Of a stretch of DNA of 32,000 bases, positions 11,426 through 27,977 are shown piece by piece. Each line of letters begins with the position of its first letter. The stretch's first letter is position 1. This stretch comes from Methanocaldococcus jannaschii DSM 2661. Lineage in GTDB: Archaea > AGJL01 > Methanococci > Methanococcales > Methanocaldococcaceae. The notes below the pieces were generated by a model. That model was not told where the DNA came from and made no database searches. It saw nothing but the letters and a program-made list of their open reading frames with translations. Both the position numbers and the translations under genes were made by a program. The stretch is taken from contig NC_000909.1 in the NCBI RefSeq assembly GCF_000091665.1, positions 1,116,629 to 1,148,628 of the forward strand, written 5' to 3'.

Positions 11426-12277
11426 TTATTTTTTCAATTCTTCAACTCTATCTTTATAATATAACGCAATAGCCCTTTTTGCGAATACTGCTGTGTAGAA
11501 TCCAACAAAGGCAGAAATTACTGCTGATATCACATCAACAATCGTCTCTGAAGAGGAGAAAGTAGAATATCTTGCTGGAGATATAGCAAAGATTTTTAAT
11601 AAAATAAATGGAAGTTGCACAACAAAATTTATCACTATGACTATAACTCCAACAATTATAAGCAATATTATATAATTTAAATTTATCATTCTAAATATTT
11701 CTTTAAACTCAAAAAATCCAGAAAATCCTTTTACAGAGTAATTCACCTCTGCTAATCCTTCATATATCAAAAGTGCAATTGTCGATACAAACAAAAGTAA
11801 AAATCCAATTCCTATAAAAACAATTCCCACTAAAGGCAAAAATATTAAAAATACTCCAAATATAATAAACAAAATTGGAACAATCATAAAGATTATTGAG
11901 AGTATAATATTCCCAATCCAGTATAAAAAACCTCTTTTAAGTAACTCAGCAATATCATCCCAATCAGGGAGGACATCATAATTTTCAACAGTAGTTTTCA
12001 TTACTCTAACATAGTAACCATCAAGTATGAAACCTATAATTAACGCAATTAAAAACCCAAAACTTGCAACAATTAGAGAGGTTAATAAAATATTATTGTC
12101 CAATCCAACAACATCATTAGGATTAATATTGTGTATTAATAGAATAGACAAGATAATTCCAAATATTGCTCCAATAGCTCCAGAGGTTGATGATAACAAT
12201 CCTCCGACTATTCCTTTTTTAACATCTGAAAGCACATAATAAAATGCATCTTTTAAATAATACTCAAGTTTTTTCAT
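11426..12277 (-). CDS. Polytopic membrane protein of unknown function (possibly DUF4013-like)
   Basis: 283-aa ORF with about 6-7 long hydrophobic segments. No catalytic motif recognised. Confidence 0.6.
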   Translation of the reverse strand: MKKLEYYLKDAFYYVLSDVKKGIVGGLLSSTSGAIGAIFGIILSILLIHNINPNDVVGLDNNILLTSLIVASFGFLIALIIGFILDGYYVRVMKTTVENYDVLPDWDDIAELLKRGFLYWIGNIILSIIFMIVPILFIIFGVFLIFLPLVGIVFIGIGFLLLFVSTIALLIYEGLAEVNYSVKGFSGFFEFKEIFRMINLNYIILLIIVGVIVIVINFVVQLPFILLKIFAISPARYSTFSSSETIVDVISAVISAFVGFYTAVFAKRAIALYYKDRVEELKK

Positions 12278-12444
12278 TTTAACCCCTCAGTTTTTAGCAG
12301 TATTTTAATTTCTAAATTTTATTATAGAAATTTTTAGAATTTTATTCCAATTATTAGTTTGTTGTTATTTTGATTTATTTAAACCTTATGGACATATAAT
12401 TATATTTAATCCATATATTTAAATTTATCAATAAAAATAGTAAA

Positions 12445-12567
12445 TAAAAAATCTGTGTGGGGGAGGGGTGTTTAACTGTAAATTTTGTTAATCTACTGGA
12501 GCCGGCTCCTTATGGCGCGGGTTATCAGCGGTGAGGTGGGGGGCTCACCACTATCCCACCCGCGCCA
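12445..12567 (-). ncRNA. Candidate ~120-nt structured small RNA (unknown family) with its own promoter and oligo-T terminator
   Basis: On the minus strand a TATA box TTTATATA (plus 12590-12597) lies 23 nt upstream of the first base of a 9-bp GC helix (12566). 5' hairpin at 12514-12566: GGCGCGGGU ... ACCCGCGCC with an inner helix GGUGAG/CUCACC. Mini-hairpin GGAGCCGGCUCC at 12498-12509. A C-rich tail CACCCCUCCCCCACACAGA is followed by T6 (12445-12450). The inner helix extends from 6 to 10 bp only in the minus-sense RNA, through two G-U pairs. Confidence 0.55.
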
Positions 12568-12589
12568 ACTTGTTATTACAAACTTTACC

Positions 12590-12597
12590 TATATAAA
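12590..12597 (-). promoter_or_regulatory. Consensus archaeal TATA box (TTTATATA) preceded by a purine-rich BRE-like AAAAG, driving the candidate ncRNA
   Basis: The minus-strand sequence reads cgAAAAG-TTTATATA-ggtaaagtttgtaataacaagtt-GGCGCGGG. The 23-nt spacing to the GC island matches the canonical archaeal TATA-to-TSS distance. Confidence 0.55.
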
Positions 12598-12756
12598 CTT
12601 TTCGATACAAAAAATTTTAATTAAATTAAAGCGTTCTTAAATTAAATATGACTATTAGATTGTTTAATAACTTCCATTAGCCAGTTTAAGAATATATATT
12701 TTTATAGTTATCCTCCTAATTAATTGATTGTGATTTCTATTCTTGGAGGTGAATCT

Positions 12757-14730
12757 ATGTCCCCAAGAGTTGGGGTATTTGTCTGTTACTGTGGAGCGAA
12801 CATCAACGGTGTTGTTGATTGTGAAGCAGTAAGAGATTTTGCTGAAAAATTAGACGGAGTTGTTGTAGCAAAGACCTATCCTTTTATGTGTGCTGACCCA
12901 GGACAAAACTTGATTAAAGAAGCAATAAAGGAATATAATCTTGATAGAGTCGTTGTCGCGGCATGCACACCAAAAATTCACGAGCCTACTTTTAGAAATT
13001 GTATAAAAGAAGCAGGTTTATCTCCATATTACTTGGAGTTTGTCAATATTAGGGAGCACTGTTCATTTGTTCATATGAATGATAGAGAAAAAGCAACTAA
13101 AAAAGCAATGGAGTTAGTTGCAGGGGCTGTTGAAAGAGCTAAGAGATTAGAAGACGTTCCACAAAAAATTGTAGAAGTTGATAAATCTTGCTTAATCATT
13201 GGAGGAGGTATCGCTGGAATTCAGGCAGCTCTTGACTTAGGAGACCAAGGTTATAAAGTTTATTTAGTTGAGAAGGAGCCATCAATTGGAGGTAGGATGG
13301 CTCAGCTTGCTAAGACATTCCCAACTGATGACTGTGCGCTGTGAATTTTGGCCCCAAAGATGGTTAGCGTTGCAAACCACCCCAATGTTGAACTCATCAC
13401 CTATGCTGAAGTTAAAAATGTCGAAGGATTTATTGGAAACTTTGAAGTCACAATAGAGAAAAAACCAAGATACGTTGATGAAAACATCTGTACCGGATGT
13501 GGAGCCTGTGCTGCTGTATGTCCAATTGAAGTGCCAAACGAATTTGACTTAGGTTTAGGAACAAGAAAAGCCATCTATGTCCCATTCGCACAGGCAGTTC
13601 CTCTTGTCTATACAATCGATATGGACCACTGTATAAGATGTGGCTTATGTGAAAAAGCTTGTGGTCCAGGAGCTATAAGATACGACCAAAAACCTGAAGA
13701 GATTAAGTTAAAGGTTGGAACAATCATCTGTGCAGTTGGTTATGATGAATTTGATGCTACATTGAAAGAAGAGTATGGTTATGGAGTCTATGACAACGTC
13801 ATAACAACATTAGAATTAGAAAGAATGATTAACCCAGCAGGACCAACAGGAGGGCATGAAATAAGACCAAGTGATGGAAAGCACCCACACAGAGTTGTAT
13901 TCATACAGTGTGTTGGTTCAAGAGATGCAAAGGTTGGAAAGCACTACTGTTCAAGAATCTGTTGTATGTTTGCTTTGAAGAATGCTCAATTAATTAAACA
14001 GCACGACCCAAGCACTGAAGTTTATATCTGCTACATGGATATCAGGTCTTTTGGTAAAGGTTACGAAGAGTATTACAGAAGAGCTCAGGAGCAGTTTGGA
14101 GTTAAGTTCATTAGAGGAAGGCCAGCTTGCATAATGGAAGATCCAGAGACAAAGAACTTGATTGTTAGAGTAGAAGATACATTATTGGGAGAGATTGTAG
14201 AAATTGAAGCAGATTTAGTTGTATTGTCAGCAGGATTGTCACCAAGACCAGACAATCCAAAATTGGCTAAGATGCTTGGTTTAGAGCTCAGTCCAGATGG
14301 ATTCTTCAAGGAGTTGCATCCAAAGTTAGCTCCAGTTAATACAAAGGTCGATGGTATAGCAATTGCAGGAGTTGCTCAGGGACCAAAAGACATTCCAGAT
14401 ACCGTAGCTCAGGCTAAAGGGGCCGCAAGTGCTGTTTCAATACCAATGGCACAAGGACAGTTTAGAATAGAGATGATAAGGGCAGTTGTTGATGAAGATG
14501 TCTGTGGAGGATGCCAAGTTTGTGCTAAGATGTGTCCATACAATGCTATAACCTATGTTGAAAAAGATGGACACTTAGTAGCTCAAGTCAATGACGTTGC
14601 ATGTAAGGGATGCGGTTCATGTGCTGGAGCATGTCCAAGTGGAGCAATGCAGTTGAGATACTATAGAGATGAGCAAATAATTTCATTCATTGATGGAGTA
14701 TTAGAAGCTCACCAAAAATTAGAAAGTTAA
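12757..14730 (+). CDS. hdrA: Heterodisulfide reductase subunit A, selenocysteine-containing (UGA 13342-13344 read as Sec)
   Basis: ATG 12757 follows the SD GGAGGTGA ([21 protein letters not shown]). ORFs 12724-13344 and 13348-14730 are in the same frame, separated only by TGA in the motif DDCAL-U-ILAPKM (Cys in non-Sec HdrA). FAD motif [13 protein letters not shown] and several CxxCxxCxxxCP ferredoxin motifs. SECIS downstream. Confidence 0.93.
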
Positions 14731-14831
14731 AAAATAATTAAAAAGCACAAGCTCTACATTCTAATAAAAATCTCAAAAATATAACGGCGTAGGTTATGAG
14801 CTCAACATTGGGGGCAGACAAAACCAGATGA

Positions 14832-14864
14832 GGCACCACTCGAAGGCAATGCCAAAGTGGTGCT
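14832..14864 (+). promoter_or_regulatory. Archaeal SECIS element for hdrA (3' UTR)
   Basis: GCACCAC/GUGGUGC lower helix (14833-14839 / 14857-14863). Internal loop with GAA (14842-14844) opposite A-rich AAA. Upper helix GGC/GCC of 3 bp with apical loop AAU. Possible outer pairing GAUGAGG (14827-14833) with CCCUCAUC (14882-14889). Confidence 0.8.
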
Positions 14865-14962
14865 GATGGAGAGGGTAAGTGCCCTCATCCAAATTAAATT
14901 ATAAATTTAATTCTCATGTTGTTATCGAGTTTATAAAATTAATAATATATAGGGGGATTAGT

Positions 14963-15367
14963 ATGGATCCAGTAATAATTGCATTTTGTTGCTATCAGTG
15001 AGGATATGGGGCTGCTGACTTGGCAGGGACAAGTAGAATGCAATACCCTGCAACCGTAAGAATCGTAAGGCTCCCTTGTACCGGTAAATTCGATATTACC
15101 TACGCTTTAAGGGCTTTCCAAAAGGGAGCCGATGCGGTTATGGTTGTAGGGTGAAAGAAAGGAGAGTGTGCCTACGAAACAGGTAACTTAAAGGCTGAGG
15201 AGAGGGTTAGGTTCGCTAAACAATTATTAGATGAATTAGGAATTGGCGGAGACAGAATTGACATGTTTTTCATGTCTGCCGCTGAGGCAGATAAATTCGT
15301 CTCCGCCGTTAATGAAATGACTGCAAGAGTTGAAAAACTCGGACCTAACCCTCTCAAAGCTCAGTAA
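14963..15367 (+). CDS. vhuD: F420-non-reducing hydrogenase subunit D (MvhD-type), with two selenocysteines (UGA 14999-15001 and 15152-15154)
   Basis: Not in the ORF track because of two in-frame TGAs. My translation: MDPVIIAFCCYQ-U-GYGAADLAGTSRMQYPATVRIVRLPCTGKFDITYALRAFQKGADAVMVVG-U-KKGECAYETGNLKAEERVRF...LKAQ*. Both TGAs are in frame with ATG 14963 and occupy positions that are Cys in MvhD. SECIS follows. Confidence 0.9.
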
Positions 15368-15368
15368 A

Positions 15369-15453
15369 GCCGGAGATTAAAGGGATGAGTTCTCTCGGGA
15401 ACCCGTCAAGGGACCGAGAGAACAACCGCCCCATAAGTAAGGGGTTCTCCGGC
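15369..15453 (+). promoter_or_regulatory. vhuD SECIS (core 15389-15423) embedded in an 85-nt composite structure with a second hairpin and an 8-bp closing helix
   Basis: Core: GUUCUCUCGG-GAA-CCC-GUCAA-GGG-A-CCGAGAGAAC. Second hairpin: CCCC-AUAAGUAA-GGGG (15429-15444). Outer helix: GCCGGAGA (15369-15376) pairs with UCUCCGGC (15446-15453). Confidence 0.85.
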
Positions 15454-15481
15454 ATTGCAAAACTAATTTAAACTTTTTAGG

Positions 15482-25476: not shown

Positions 25477-25691
25477 AAATTTTTTATAGCTATACTAAAT
25501 ATTCTTCTTATTGTTTTTATCACATGCATGAAAAACTATATAAATAACAATTGATATTTTATTTTTAAATAACTATTTGCTGTCTATTTTCTATATAATA
25601 AATCATATAAAAATATCATCCATTATATTAACTTAAATAAATGTTAGTAATTTAAAGCCAAGGTCTTTTTTACAATTATCTGGGGGAGAAC

Positions 25692-27977
25692 ATGATAGTA
25701 AAGTGTCCAATTTGTGATGGAACAGGAAAGAAAGTAGTTAAATACAAAACATGCCCTGTATGTGAGGGAACTGGATTTATAGATGAATTTTCACCAAAGC
25801 AACACATGAAAAGAGTTTCTAAGAGAGCAACTTATGACTTAGATTATGGAGAAATTCCCTGCCCTAAATGTAAAGGGACAGGAAAAGTTCCAGTTTATGC
25901 AAAATGTGATTTTTGTGGTGGAAGTGGAAAGGTAGTTAAATGTGATAGATGCGGAGCTATAATTGGTAAATATCCTGACTTTAAAGATAGGACATTGTGT
26001 GATAAATGTCTAAAAGAAGAGGAAGAGAGAAAGAAAGGGCTTAGAAATGTATATGTGTTTGATGAATTGGCAACATTCTATGATGTTGAGCCAGGTAAAT
26101 TTTACAAAGGAGTAGTTACAAGAATTGAGAAGTATGGAGCTTTTATCAATTTAAATGAACAAGTTAGAGGGCTTTTAAGACCAAGAGACATGATAAGCTT
26201 AAGATTGGAGAATTTAAATGTTGGTGATGAAATCATAGTTCAAGCAATAGATGTAAGACCAGAAAAGAGAGAGATTGACTTTAAATACATCCCACTAACA
26301 ACCTATGATTTAGTTAAATATGAAAAAGAAGTTCCATTGTCTCAGATAAAGGACATATCCCAAAATTTAGTTGAGATGAGAGACCAGGTTGTGCATATAA
26401 GAGGAGAGGTTGTTCAGATTGTTCAGACACCAGGACCTACAGTATTCACCATAACAGATGGAACTGACTTTGCATGGGTAGCTGCTTTAGAAATAGCCGG
26501 TTTGAGAGCTCATCCGGATGTTAAAGTTGGAGACATAGTTGATGTTATTGGTAGAGTAACAATAAGGGATGGAAGATTACAGATTGAAAGGATAAAGCTT
26601 CAAAAATTGGAAGGAGATGAGGCAGAGGAAATTAGGAAAAAAATAGAGGAAGAAATTGATAGAAGGGCAGAGCCAGCTAAGGATATTCCATTCTTAGTTA
26701 AGAGTGAAGTTTTAGAGAGATTGAGACCAAAAATGGCGGATGTTGCTAAGAGAATTAGGAAGGCAGTTTTAGACGGAAGACCAATAATTATTAGACATCA
26801 TGCAGATACAGATGGTTATTGTGGAGGAATTGCTTTAGAAAAGGCAATATTACCAATAATTGATAAATTTGCCATAGACGTTGATGCAATATGGCACTTC
26901 TTTAAAAGGAGGCCGTCAAAAGCACCATTCTATGAATTAGAAGATGTAACAAAGGATTTGGTATTCTCTATAGAAGATGCCTTGAAATTTGGTCAGAAAC
27001 TACCTTTGATTGTATTGATTGATAATGGAAGTACTGATGAAGATATTCCAGCCATATCCAAAGCTAAAGCTTATGGTATAGAGGTTATTGTAATAGACCA
27101 CCACTTCCCTGGAGAGGTTGTTGATGGAAAAGTTGAGGTTGATGACTACGTAGATGCTCATGTCAATCCATACTTAGTTGGAGGAGATAGCAATTTAACC
27201 GCTGGAGTATTAGGAACTGAAATAGCGAGGATGATTAATCCAGATGTTGAGGATGAGATAAAGCATATTCCAGGAATAGCAGTTGTTGGAGACCATGCTA
27301 AAGGAGAGGAAGCGGAACAGTATGTAAAAATAGCCCTTGACAGATTGAATGAATTGAGTAAAAAATACGGTAAAGGAAGAACTTACGATAGAGAGTATTT
27401 GGAGAAAATAGCCCTATGTATGGATTTTGAGGCGTTCTACTTAAGATTCATGGATGGTAAGGGAATTGTTGATGATATATTAGCAACAAACATAAAAGAG
27501 TTTGGAAGACATGAAGAACTTATAGACATATTGTATGAGCAGGCAATGAAGATGGTTGAAAGACAGATGAAGGCAGTAATTCCAGCTTTAAAAACAGAAT
27601 TCTTAGAGAATGGAATTATATTAAATACATTAGATGTTGAGAAATATGCCCACAAATTTACCTTCCCAGCTCCAGGAAAAACAACTGGATTTGCTCATGA
27701 CTATATAGTTCAAAAATATGGTGAGGATAAGCCAATCATAACTCTCTCCTATGGCCCTGACTTTGGAGTTGTTAGAGCTACAGATGCAGTTCATGAAAAA
27801 TACAATTTCAACTTAAACTTAATAGTTGAGCAATTAATGGAGGAGATTCCTGAGGCATCTTTGGATGGAGGAGGTCATGAGTGTGCAGGTAGCTTGAAGT
27901 TTGTTGAGGGGTTAAGAGATAAAGTAATTGGTAGATTTATTGAAATCATCAAAAATATGAAGCCAAAAGAGCAATAA
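25692..27977 (+). CDS. RecJ-like DHH/DHHA1 phosphoesterase with N-terminal DnaJ-type CxxCxGxG zinc module, S1 and OB-fold domains
   Basis: Four CxxCxGxG repeats (CPICDGTG, CPVCEGTG, CPKCKGTG, CDFCGGSG). S1-like segment FYKGVVTRIEKYGAFINL. OB fold (VHIRGEVVQIVQTPGPTVFTITDG..). DHH motifs (HHADTDGYCG, LIDNG, VIDHH) and DHHA1 GGGHECAGS. Confidence 0.75.
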   Translation: MIVKCPICDGTGKKVVKYKTCPVCEGTGFIDEFSPKQHMKRVSKRATYDLDYGEIPCPKCKGTGKVPVYAKCDFCGGSGKVVKCDRCGAIIGKYPDFKDRTLCDKCLKEEEERKKGLRNVYVFDELATFYDVEPGKFYKGVVTRIEKYGAFINLNEQVRGLLRPRDMISLRLENLNVGDEIIVQAIDVRPEKREIDFKYIPLTTYDLVKYEKEVPLSQIKDISQNLVEMRDQVVHIRGEVVQIVQTPGPTVFTITDGTDFAWVAALEIAGLRAHPDVKVGDIVDVIGRVTIRDGRLQIERIKLQKLEGDEAEEIRKKIEEEIDRRAEPAKDIPFLVKSEVLERLRPKMADVAKRIRKAVLDGRPIIIRHHADTDGYCGGIALEKAILPIIDKFAIDVDAIWHFFKRRPSKAPFYELEDVTKDLVFSIEDALKFGQKLPLIVLIDNGSTDEDIPAISKAKAYGIEVIVIDHHFPGEVVDGKVEVDDYVDAHVNPYLVGGDSNLTAGVLGTEIARMINPDVEDEIKHIPGIAVVGDHAKGEEAEQYVKIALDRLNELSKKYGKGRTYDREYLEKIALCMDFEAFYLRFMDGKGIVDDILATNIKEFGRHEELIDILYEQAMKMVERQMKAVIPALKTEFLENGIILNTLDVEKYAHKFTFPAPGKTTGFAHDYIVQKYGEDKPIITLSYGPDFGVVRATDAVHEKYNFNLNLIVEQLMEEIPEASLDGGGHECAGSLKFVEGLRDKVIGRFIEIIKNMKPKEQ

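Follow-up and report, generated by a model that had tools for sequence, protein, structure and literature searches.

The spacer between MJ1189 and hdrA (MJ1190) of Methanocaldococcus jannaschii DSM 2661 very probably holds a genuine, conserved non-coding RNA gene, and the best overall explanation of it is a conserved small RNA (sRNA) that regulates in trans in an anti-Shine-Dalgarno-like manner (probability roughly 0.4). The comparison of homologues establishes a predicted gene of ~116-121 nt on the minus strand, running from 12566 to ~12446, that would be independently transcribed. It represents an unnamed, previously unclassified family which, as judged from the loci compared, lies upstream of hdrA, in divergent orientation, in both Methanocaldococcus and Methanothermococcus. 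The strongest G+C island of the window, by which we mean the whole 32-kb stretch of DNA that was analyzed, lies on the minus strand at 12446-12566 and peaks at a G+C content of 0.70 (over 50 nt), the mean of the window being 0.334. The open reading frames bordering the region are MJ1188 and MJ1189. The minus strand has a predicted folding energy of -45.1 kcal/mol compared to -27.4 +/- 3.2 kcal/mol for shuffled sequences (z = -5.53), and none of the 200 shuffles folded as well. For the plus strand, the z-score was -1.46 and 19 of 200 shuffles were equally good. A covariance model scored the minus strand at 79 bits and the plus strand at 15 bits. An initial annotation had proposed an independent, structured minus-strand RNA gene of ~120 nt that has a promoter and an oligo-T stop of its own, and this proposal is supported here. 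The sequence it quoted is correct (GAAAAG-TTTATATA, a gap of 23 nt, GGCGCGGG from 12566, and the 3' end CACACAGA-TTTTTT), and the parts that it described were all found, namely a 9-bp basal helix, a 10-bp upper helix with two U-G pairs, an AUA triplet, a GGAGCCGGCUCC hairpin and a C-rich tail. Protein coding is excluded by indels of 1, 10 and 11 nt, and the substitutions are compensatory, without a codon pattern. A DNA-level element or a chance island is ruled out by the strand-specific exchanges of G-U for C-G pairs, together with the difference in covariance score between the strands. Searches of plasmid and phage collections revealed no similarity that would point to a mobile element, and a tRNA/tmRNA scan found neither at the island.

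The predicted promoter, which matches the archaeal consensus, consists of a BRE-like GAAAAG and the TATA box TTTATATA (12590-12603, minus strand; TATA box at 12590-12597). This 14-nt string occurs once in the 32 kb with one mismatch tolerated. The form (A/C)GAAAA(G/C)TTTATATA is kept in 10/10 Methanocaldococcus homologues, and 4/4 Methanothermococcus homologues carry GCGAAAA(A/G)TATATATAT at an equal distance from the RNA. We infer that the element acts as an archaeal promoter. From archaeal TATA-to-start spacing, transcription would begin at 12566 on the minus strand, at the G that forms the first base of the basal helix; the gap from TATA box to start is 23 nt in M. jannaschii and 23-24 nt in all homologues. 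At the other end, a run of six T residues (12446-12451, minus strand; U6 in the RNA) probably acts as an archaeal terminator, and T5-T7 is found at the equivalent place in 10/10 Methanocaldococcus homologues. The same region could be read as a cis-acting 5' leader or attenuator of MJ1189 (DUF4013), which lies on the same strand ~170 nt downstream, so that the T-run would be a regulated stop; a DUF4013 gene is indeed the downstream neighbor in all Methanocaldococcus loci. However, this place is taken by CarS in Methanothermococcus, a conserved TTTAAATAT(A/T)T box separates the RNA stop from the downstream gene, and the promoter of the RNA is of the strong stable-RNA type. Both DUF4013 and CarS have a TATA-like box of their own past the RNA stop. 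We regard a leader function as very unlikely.

The RNA opens with a 5' hairpin (RNA nt 1-53; 12514-12566, minus strand), for which the MFE and centroid structures are the same. It is built from a basal helix (nt 1-9 with 45-53), an internal loop of GGGA (10-13) opposite AUA (42-44), an upper helix (14-23 with 32-41) and an apical loop CCCCCCAC (24-31). In the 10 Methanocaldococcus sequences, pairing of the helices is 100% and 99%, with compensatory changes at five pairs. Over 12 sequences from the two genera, 99.4% of the hairpin cells are paired and 8/16 pairs are compensatory, compared to 26-61% pairing in a control in which the 3' partners were slid. These compensatory changes bear out both helices as they were originally drawn. 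The 9-bp basal helix is 100% paired and has compensatory changes between the genera at six of its nine pairs. In the upper helix, pairs 14-41 and 17-38 switch from U-G to C-G, and pairs 15-40 and 16-39 are invariant. The argument that G-U pairs betray the transcribed strand was thus right, since U14-G41 and U17-G38 are exchanged for C-G among relatives and the covariance model prefers the same strand. The 4x3 internal loop GGGA/AUA and its closing pairs are invariant in the 12 sequences of both genera, while the surrounding helices co-vary. The C-rich apical loop is likewise an invariant or near-invariant element of the hairpin; it reads CCCCCCAC or CUCCCCCAC, and in Methanothermococcus it is 24-30 nt long and rich in A/U and C. 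At 85 °C, the 5' hairpin is predicted to be the sole element that is still folded.

The internal loop had been described as K-turn-like. GA dinucleotides are present on both strands (G12A13 and G41A42) and are invariant, but the loop, being a 4x3 GGGA/AUA loop, fails as a canonical K-turn. We considered that L7Ae might bind the loop as a kink-turn of non-canonical form or as tandem sheared G.A pairs, and these invariant dinucleotides speak for such a site. A tandem G12.A42/A13.G41 with nt 14 bulged could form, because pair 14-41 varies on one side only (U-G to C-G). However, the canonical layout (a 3-nt bulge, then G.A/A.G, with a GA on the opposite strand that directly adjoins the C-stem on its 5' side) is not seen; with the basal helix as C-stem, A13.A44 would occupy 2b.2n and the NC stem would be incompatible with pairs 15-40 and 16-39. 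The alignments do contain an invariant CUGA, but there is no conserved RUGAUGA C box, with GUGGUGA, GCGAUGA and GUGAUGG appearing instead, and no Rfam C/D or H/ACA match was obtained at E <= 10. An L7Ae site of this kind is improbable on such a balance.

The hairpin also resembles archaeal single-hairpin H/ACA pseudouridylation guides (PMC4652768) in its two helices with an internal loop between them, in its basal helix of 9 bp, which is within the 7-9 bp expected of the lower stem, and in the triplet after that helix, AUA in M. jannaschii, which had been taken for an ANA-type box. The triplet is not conserved, and the guide reading is refuted on this defining box. In the 10 Methanocaldococcus homologues it reads AUA, AUU, GUA, GUG, GUA, GUA, AUA, UUU, UUU and UUU, so that only 3/10 have AUA or AUU, and in Methanothermococcus it is GUU or AGG. 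Guides have an open pocket, with 5-6 nt on the 3' strand and no alternative pairing inside, and a spacing of 14-16 nt between the upper closing pair and the ANA box (PMC4652768). In contrast, the putative pocket strands pair here, since 14-41 and 17-38 are base pairs (U-G to C-G), which leaves a 4x3 loop with paired flanks that is too small as a pocket, and the spacing between the upper closing pair and the triplet amounts to 3 + 9 = 12 nt. Guides also carry a K-turn or K-loop with G.A pairs ~10 stacked layers above the pocket. Neither was found here, the apical loops CCCCCCAC and CUCCCCCAC having no GA, and Rfam yielded no H/ACA match. A guide function is hardly credible.

The 3' half of the RNA is predicted to be mostly unstructured and ends in oligo-U. 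A second small hairpin, GGAG-CCGG-CUCC (RNA nt 58-69; 12498-12509, minus strand), is variable among homologues. Jannaschii-like and fervens-like sequences possess it, and GGAG...CUCC with other loops occurs in Methanothermococcus. The lauensis-like clade, L004, L043 and L046-48 have lost it through deletion, and it is thus dispensable for the core of the family. Further downstream, the block AAUUUACAG (nt 83-91; 12476-12484, minus strand) is conserved, with 8/9 positions invariant in 10 Methanocaldococcus sequences and G at the eighth in two of them (L003 and L034). A weak A-U helix predicted around this block (AAUUUAC) was not accepted, because it is only 77% paired and covariation is absent. 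The C-rich 3' box CCCCUCCCCCACA (nt 99-111; 12456-12468, minus strand) is predicted to be unpaired in most homologues, with a probability of 0.9-1.0, and no other single-stranded element of the RNA is as well conserved as this C-rich tail. Its core CCCUCCCCCACA is invariant in the 10 Methanocaldococcus sequences, the flanks being variable, and CCCCUCCC is also found in the 3' region of 4/4 Methanothermococcus homologues. The number of C-runs is two in Methanocaldococcus and four to six in Methanothermococcus. The CCCCUCCC box, which continues as CCCCUCCC(CCACA), contains CCUCC, the anti-Shine-Dalgarno core.

We propose, tentatively, that the C-rich box acts as the seed of a trans-acting sRNA that blocks translation at G-rich ribosome-binding sites. 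The exposed box, perhaps together with the C-rich apical loop, would serve as an anti-Shine-Dalgarno-like seed and pair with ribosome-binding sites of the GGAGG or GGGGG type in target mRNAs, so that initiation would be blocked. The thermostable hairpin would shield the 5' end and would probably present a loop for protein binding. The constancy of CCCUCCCCCACA amid varying flanks, the presence of CCCCUCCC in both genera and the predicted unpaired state of the C-runs argue for such a seed. There are precedents, as RsaE and other sRNAs of S. aureus have as their hallmark unpaired C-rich (UCCC) boxes that bind Shine-Dalgarno sequences (PMC2790875), and methanogens have sRNAs directed against ribosome-binding sites in M. 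mazei sRNA154 and sRNA41 (PMC5867862). The initial annotation had suggested hdrA, vhuB and rpl7ae as possible targets of the tail. The predicted duplex between the tail and the hdrA translation initiation region is weak (-8.9 kcal/mol) and ranks 18th of the 26 start regions in the 32-kb window. From these duplex models, hdrA is not a favored target and a general anti-Shine-Dalgarno-like seed is plausible. The best duplexes between the tail and start regions of the window were unremarkable. The top target match lies in a Gly-run stretch of the AFOR coding region, and one 8-bp Shine-Dalgarno match (CUGGGGGAG) lies at the DHH/S1-domain gene at 25692, although 32 kb is too little sequence for either to carry weight. 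Shine-Dalgarno sequences in the window are mostly of the GGUGA type and match the C-rich box poorly.

A simple antisense seed has no need of the invariant purine-rich internal loop, which indicates a protein or tertiary partner outside the seed model. The RNA might instead be a protein-binding scaffold or sponge, in which the GGGA/AUA loop and the repeated C-rich boxes are protein sites rather than antisense seeds. In one form of this idea, the RNA mimics the 3' end of 16S rRNA (CCUCC) and titrates a factor such as a KH-domain Dim2/Pno1-like protein; in another, it is held via its U-tail by a Methanococcales Hfq/Sm-like protein. Both candidate partners are presumed from general knowledge. A loop that stays invariant with its closing pairs in 12 sequences while helices co-vary around it is typical of a recognition site, the differing numbers of C-runs resemble multi-site sponge RNAs, and the oligo-U end would suit the second form. 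In addition, the promoter is strong and tRNA-like, which points to an RNA made in abundance; promoters of such G+C islands bind TBP/TFB strongly according to Li et al. (PMC2602779). However, the gene neighbors (hdrA, and DUF4013 or CarS) link no candidate protein to the RNA, and we hold this explanation to be rather unlikely. We give still less credence to a broader scheme of global control, in which this lineage-specific RNA would modulate how translation is initiated in hyperthermophilic methanogens. Such a "super anti-SD" RNA would be abundant and would carry one or more CCCCUCCC boxes that mimic the 16S rRNA 3' end and compete for G-rich Shine-Dalgarno sequences or titrate a factor that recognizes the anti-Shine-Dalgarno sequence. 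It would be anchored by a dedicated protein on the GGGA/AUA loop and co-controlled with the energy-conserving Hdr-Vhu operon from the shared divergent region.

We found 14 homologues, 10 in Methanocaldococcus and four diverged ones in Methanothermococcus, each upstream of and divergent from hdrA. In a pattern scan of metagenomes, a single true homologue (L034) was recovered beside 11 chance matches. The RNA is absent from the hdrA locus of Methanocaldococcus sp. 28A (L002), of two Methanococcales lineages (L049, L050/51) and of M. voltae-like contigs (L052). Matches in M. infernus and sp. 10A proved to be DUF4013 paralogue loci without the RNA, and a search of the window and of ~240 kb of related loci revealed no second copy. 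The linkage to hdrA is conserved and is not accounted for by the seed model. A functional tie to hdrA, either as a divergent control region common to the RNA and the hdrA-vhu operon or through regulation of hdr/vhu expression by the RNA, would fit with the divergent adjacency being the only context conserved between the genera, the other neighbor having changed. It would also fit with the TATA boxes of the RNA and hdrA lying ~100 bp apart with a conserved CTAATGGAAG block in between. On the other hand, the transcripts do not overlap, only weak pairing is predicted at the start region of hdrA, and the hdrA loci that have no RNA still retain a Sec-type hdrA. The adjacency may reflect simple inheritance, and we consider a tie of this kind doubtful.

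No described family accounts for the RNA, as had been suspected from the outset. With Rfam 15, whose models cover HgcC, archaeal H/ACA and C/D families, nadA and the SECIS-like flpD, the sole match in the whole window at gathering thresholds was flpD at 14824-14869, with none at the island. A scan of 12250-12800 at E <= 10 gave two chance-level matches, mir-1228 (15.9 bits compared to a gathering score of 88) and trypanosome mitochondrial LSU rRNA, neither of them C/D or H/ACA. Since no Rfam model matches, the RNA is not HgcC, which we take to be the sole hgc family of M. jannaschii represented in Rfam. The gene probably belongs to the unnamed G+C-island candidates of the 2002-2008 screens. 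As cited in reviews (PMC3432209), these include five candidates of Klein 2002 and 18 of Schattner 2002. The study of Li, Reich & Olsen 2008 describes 10 presumptive ncRNA genes of the G+C-island type, four of them confirmed earlier, and strong binding of TBP/TFB to such promoters (PMC2602779). Literature searched by gene names, a scope that leaves Klein 2002 and Schattner 2002 outside, contained no mention of an RNA in the MJ1189-MJ1190 spacer, and sequence strings returned no match.

Through this analysis, what was no more than a G+C island becomes a defined family, with a covariation-supported structure, a conserved C-rich seed and a conserved place beside hdrA, which encodes the electron-bifurcating core of hydrogenotrophic methanogenesis. 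To our knowledge, functional sRNAs are almost uncharacterized in Methanococcales, and no sRNA mechanism has been defined in any hyperthermophile. The invariant internal loop offers a ready-made probe for a protein partner, and deletion and seed-mutation work is feasible since a genetic system now exists for M. jannaschii. If the C-rich box does target ribosome-binding sites, Archaea would have in this RNA a counterpart to the RsaE/RoxS class that operates at 85 °C; if its function is ordinary, the family is still useful for RNA family databases.

Among known systems, the M. jannaschii candidates of Klein, Misulovin & Eddy 2002 (hgc), Schattner 2002 and Li 2008 share with this RNA the organism, a high-G+C island in an AT-rich spacer and a strong TBP/TFB-type promoter. 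M. mazei sRNA154 and sRNA41 (PMC5867862) are intergenic methanogen sRNAs whose anti-RBS sequences mask the ribosome-binding sites of their targets, as proposed here. They are not homologous to this RNA and differ in lineage and structure, and their targets are experimentally supported whereas any targets of this RNA are hypothetical. The RsaE/RoxS-type sRNAs of Firmicutes (PMC2790875) are similar in length (~100-120 nt), in having a 5' hairpin and in the unpaired C-rich motifs of a loop and a single strand. They also operate in a low-G+C genome with strong Shine-Dalgarno sequences and block initiation by pairing with them, which is what we propose for this RNA. In contrast, they belong to another domain of life and have no sequence or structural homology to it, and the RNA described here has no terminator hairpin because archaeal termination uses oligo-T. 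Its box is longer (CCCCUCCC compared to UCCC) and it has an invariant purine-rich internal loop in addition. The relationship to RsaE/RoxS would be one of functional class and not of homology.

A conserved element on the minus strand, structured and bounded by signals resembling a promoter and a terminator, lies in the spacer between MJ1189 and hdrA (MJ1190). The putative promoter, GAAAAG-TTTATATA (BRE/TATA, 12590-12603, minus strand), is a 14-mer with a single occurrence in the window even when one mismatch is tolerated. It is followed by a 23-nt spacer and the 5' hairpin GGCGCGGGUGGGAUAGUGGUGAGCCCCCCACCUCACCGCUGAUAACCCGCGCC (12566-12514, minus strand). On the same strand, AUA, GGAGCCGGCUCC and an A/U-rich stretch lie 3' of this hairpin, and the predicted RNA ends in CCCCUCCCCCACACAGA and a U6 run (12446-12451). 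Re-reading of the minus strand reproduced exactly the sequence in the initial annotation. In G+C content the island exceeds every other part of the window (0.70 per 50 nt, compared to a mean of 0.334), and its minus strand folds with -45.1 kcal/mol (z = -5.5 relative to 200 dinucleotide shuffles), while the plus strand gives z = -1.5. On one side of the RNA is the ORF of the DUF4013 membrane protein MJ1189 (11426-12277, minus strand); on the other is hdrA, which starts with ATG at 12757 and carries an in-frame TGA at 13345. Exact-sequence look-up matched ORFs here to MJ1189 and MJ1188, which makes the window M. jannaschii DSM 2661 and places the RNA between MJ1189 and MJ1190.

Methanocaldococcus homologues came from three sources: genomes scanned with the N-terminus of HdrA, DUF4013 orthologues looked up by exact protein, and one metagenome pattern scan. 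The ten distinct sequences (M. jannaschii, M. fervens, M. lauensis, sp. 16A, five MAGs and one metagenome contig) all place the RNA between a divergent hdrA and a same-strand DUF4013 gene. Across the genus, identity is 72-93% for the RNA, 94-98% for HdrA and only 44-75% for DUF4013. MJ1189 is very fast-evolving beside the nearly invariant HdrA; its gene is tandemly duplicated in lauensis-like genomes (loci L043, L046 and L047), and paralogues occur elsewhere, such as MJ0233. A covariance model built on the ten sequences (R1) revealed diverged homologues in four Methanothermococcus loci (13.6-23.4 bits), all upstream of hdrA and in the same orientation. These keep the promoter type, a 9-bp basal helix of different sequence, and an identical GGGA/AUA internal loop with YAG/CUG flanks. 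The apical loop is longer and contains ACACCCCC, the second hairpin is GGAG...CUCC, and the longer 3' region has several C-runs, including CCCCUCCC(C). Here the downstream gene is CarS, not DUF4013, and hdrA is the only neighbour conserved across both genera. A different gene follows the RNA in each genus, preceded by a TATA-like box of its own, which makes it very probable that the RNA gene is independent. Its conserved linkage to hdrA suggests that the two are controlled together.

Beyond the first C-rich block by 60-90 nt, the Methanothermococcus loci carry a second C-rich module on the minus strand, consisting of ACCCCUCCCC or CACCCCC, then CUAUUUUA and a further C-run (L011:5585-5680, L007:3800-3880, L006:5615-5680 and L005:5600-5680). 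T6-T8 runs separate the two in 2 of the 4 loci, and the module may either belong to this RNA as its 3' end or be transcribed separately as a short RNA. Absences of the RNA refer to the place upstream of hdrA in the loci examined, and it may have moved elsewhere in these genomes: it is missing there from L049 and L050/51 (spacers of 150-170 nt), from L008-L010, from a M. voltae-like contig (within 457 nt upstream of hdrA) and from Methanocaldococcus sp. 28A. The sequence upstream of the sp. 28A hdrA promoter (L002:5400-6000) is wholly different and the DUF4013 gene is also absent within 6 kb, a sign that this junction may have been rearranged or replaced.

Among the ten Methanocaldococcus sequences, pairing reaches 100% in one helix and 99% in the other, with five compensatory pairs, while all six slid controls had none. 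A 12-sequence alignment of both genera showed 99.4% of hairpin cells to be paired (26-61% in slid controls), both-side changes in 8 of the 16 hairpin pairs, and a hairpin covariation score of 0.62 (0.26 ± 0.03 in shuffles). The earlier proposal of strand-specific G-U pairs is confirmed, and strengthened by the relatives: pairs 14-41 and 17-38 alternate between U-G and C-G, and pairs 18-37 and 5-49 are G-U or U-G, which read as A.C mismatches on the plus strand. Covariance model R2 scores the minus strand at 79.4 bits and the plus strand at 15.2 bits. One lineage (L046/L047) has an uncompensated A.C at pair 18-37. A weak A-U helix around AAUUUAC is unsupported (77% paired, no covariation), and the lauensis-like clade has lost the second hairpin, GGAGCCGGCUCC, by deletion. 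Folding predictions for 85 °C retain the 5' hairpin alone (-8 to -11 kcal/mol for most homologues, -5.4 for L046) and leave the C-runs unpaired. For three of the four Methanothermococcus homologues (L011, L006 and L005), the predicted folds at this temperature contain an alternative pairing of GUGGGA (nt 8-13) with (U)CCCAC of the C-rich region; both partners are invariant.

The initial annotation had also described a K-turn-like loop and an ANA triplet, and neither reading is supported. The supported loop is 4x3 (GGGA/AUA); taking the basal helix as C-stem in a canonical K-turn yields G12.A45 but A13.A44, and is incompatible with invariant pairs 15-40 and 16-39. The loop could conceivably hold a non-canonical tandem G12.A42/A13.G41. 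No C box is conserved among the homologues, and neither is the ANA triplet. An H/ACA guide was rejected on the latter ground, and the RNA also departs from the other criteria for such guides (PMC4652768).

At gathering thresholds, the sole Rfam 15 match in the window was flpD at 14824-14869, with nothing at the RNA. A permissive scan (E <= 10) of 12250-12800 returned two chance-level matches only, and ARAGORN returned no match. The RNA has no entry in Rfam 15, and we found no mention of it in the papers searched. G+C-island ncRNA candidates with strong promoters were described in M. jannaschii in 2002-2008 (PMC2602779; PMC3432209), and they probably include this island, which is the strongest in the window. 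New here are a family defined across two genera, a structure backed by covariation, the description of the invariant loop and C-box, and the finding that neither the H/ACA nor the K-turn label applies.

The flpD match (RF01737, 59 bits, plus strand) lies 94 nt past the stop of hdrA, and its GAA / A internal loop around a GGC/GCC helix has the archaeal SECIS shape. Taken together with the in-frame TGA (selenocysteine) of hdrA (13345-13347, plus strand), this position and shape indicate that the motif is probably the hdrA 3'-UTR SECIS, not a leader belonging to the following gene. Between the flpD/vhuD-like ORFs and vhuG (start 15482), another G+C island (15365-15470, plus strand) also folds strongly (-45.9 kcal/mol, z = -6.1). 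It is SECIS-like because its core is GAA-CCC-loop-GGG-A, and it gave no match to the Rfam flpD model at the gathering threshold. Directly upstream of the hdrA TATA box (~12691-12710), on the side facing the RNA promoter, is a CTAATGGAAG block (~12672-12690, minus-strand reading). Most Methanocaldococcus loci keep it, L046-L048 as the variant CTAATAGATG, and so does sp. 28A, which has no RNA; the block may be a transcription-factor site for hdrA. The hdrA 5' leader (~12711-12750, plus strand) contains CCUCC ~30 nt upstream of the Shine-Dalgarno (SD) sequence GGAGGUGA, with which it could form an SD-sequestering hairpin. M. jannaschii and M. fervens both have this CCUCC, but L040 and the lauensis-like loci lack it, so it is probably not conserved.

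The C-rich tail box is the best-conserved single-stranded element, with CCCUCCCCCACA invariant in Methanocaldococcus and CCCCUCCC kept in Methanothermococcus. It does complement GGAGG, as proposed earlier for an anti-SD role, though only in a generic way. With the hdrA start region the tail is predicted to form a duplex of -8.9 kcal/mol at 37 °C, compared to -16.9 for an assumed 16S anti-SD, hdrA ranks 18th among 26 start regions for predicted tail pairing, and we found no evidence for hdrA as a target. The ribosome-binding site of a 761-aa DHH/S1/OB-fold protein, CUGGGGGAG (25675-25694, plus strand), is a perfect 8-bp complement of CUCCCCCA in the RNA; this sole SD-overlapping perfect match in the window is anecdotal. 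The main rival reading, that the invariant loop and repeated C-boxes serve a protein-binding or sponge role, is rated somewhat less likely than the mode given next. The RNA is an archaeal intergenic sRNA in kind, and its most likely mode, put tentatively at a probability of about 0.3, is that of a C-rich-box sRNA pairing with ribosome-binding sites, because its architecture matches that class. The RNA is predicted to combine a thermostable 5' hairpin with a U-tail and C-rich boxes left exposed; its organism has strong SDs, and the boxes would pair with ribosome-binding sites. A similar architecture is seen in RsaE and other S. aureus C-rich-box sRNAs that pair with these sites (PMC2790875), and by architecture class the RNA can be likened to the anti-RBS sRNAs sRNA154 and sRNA41 of M. 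mazei (PMC5867862).
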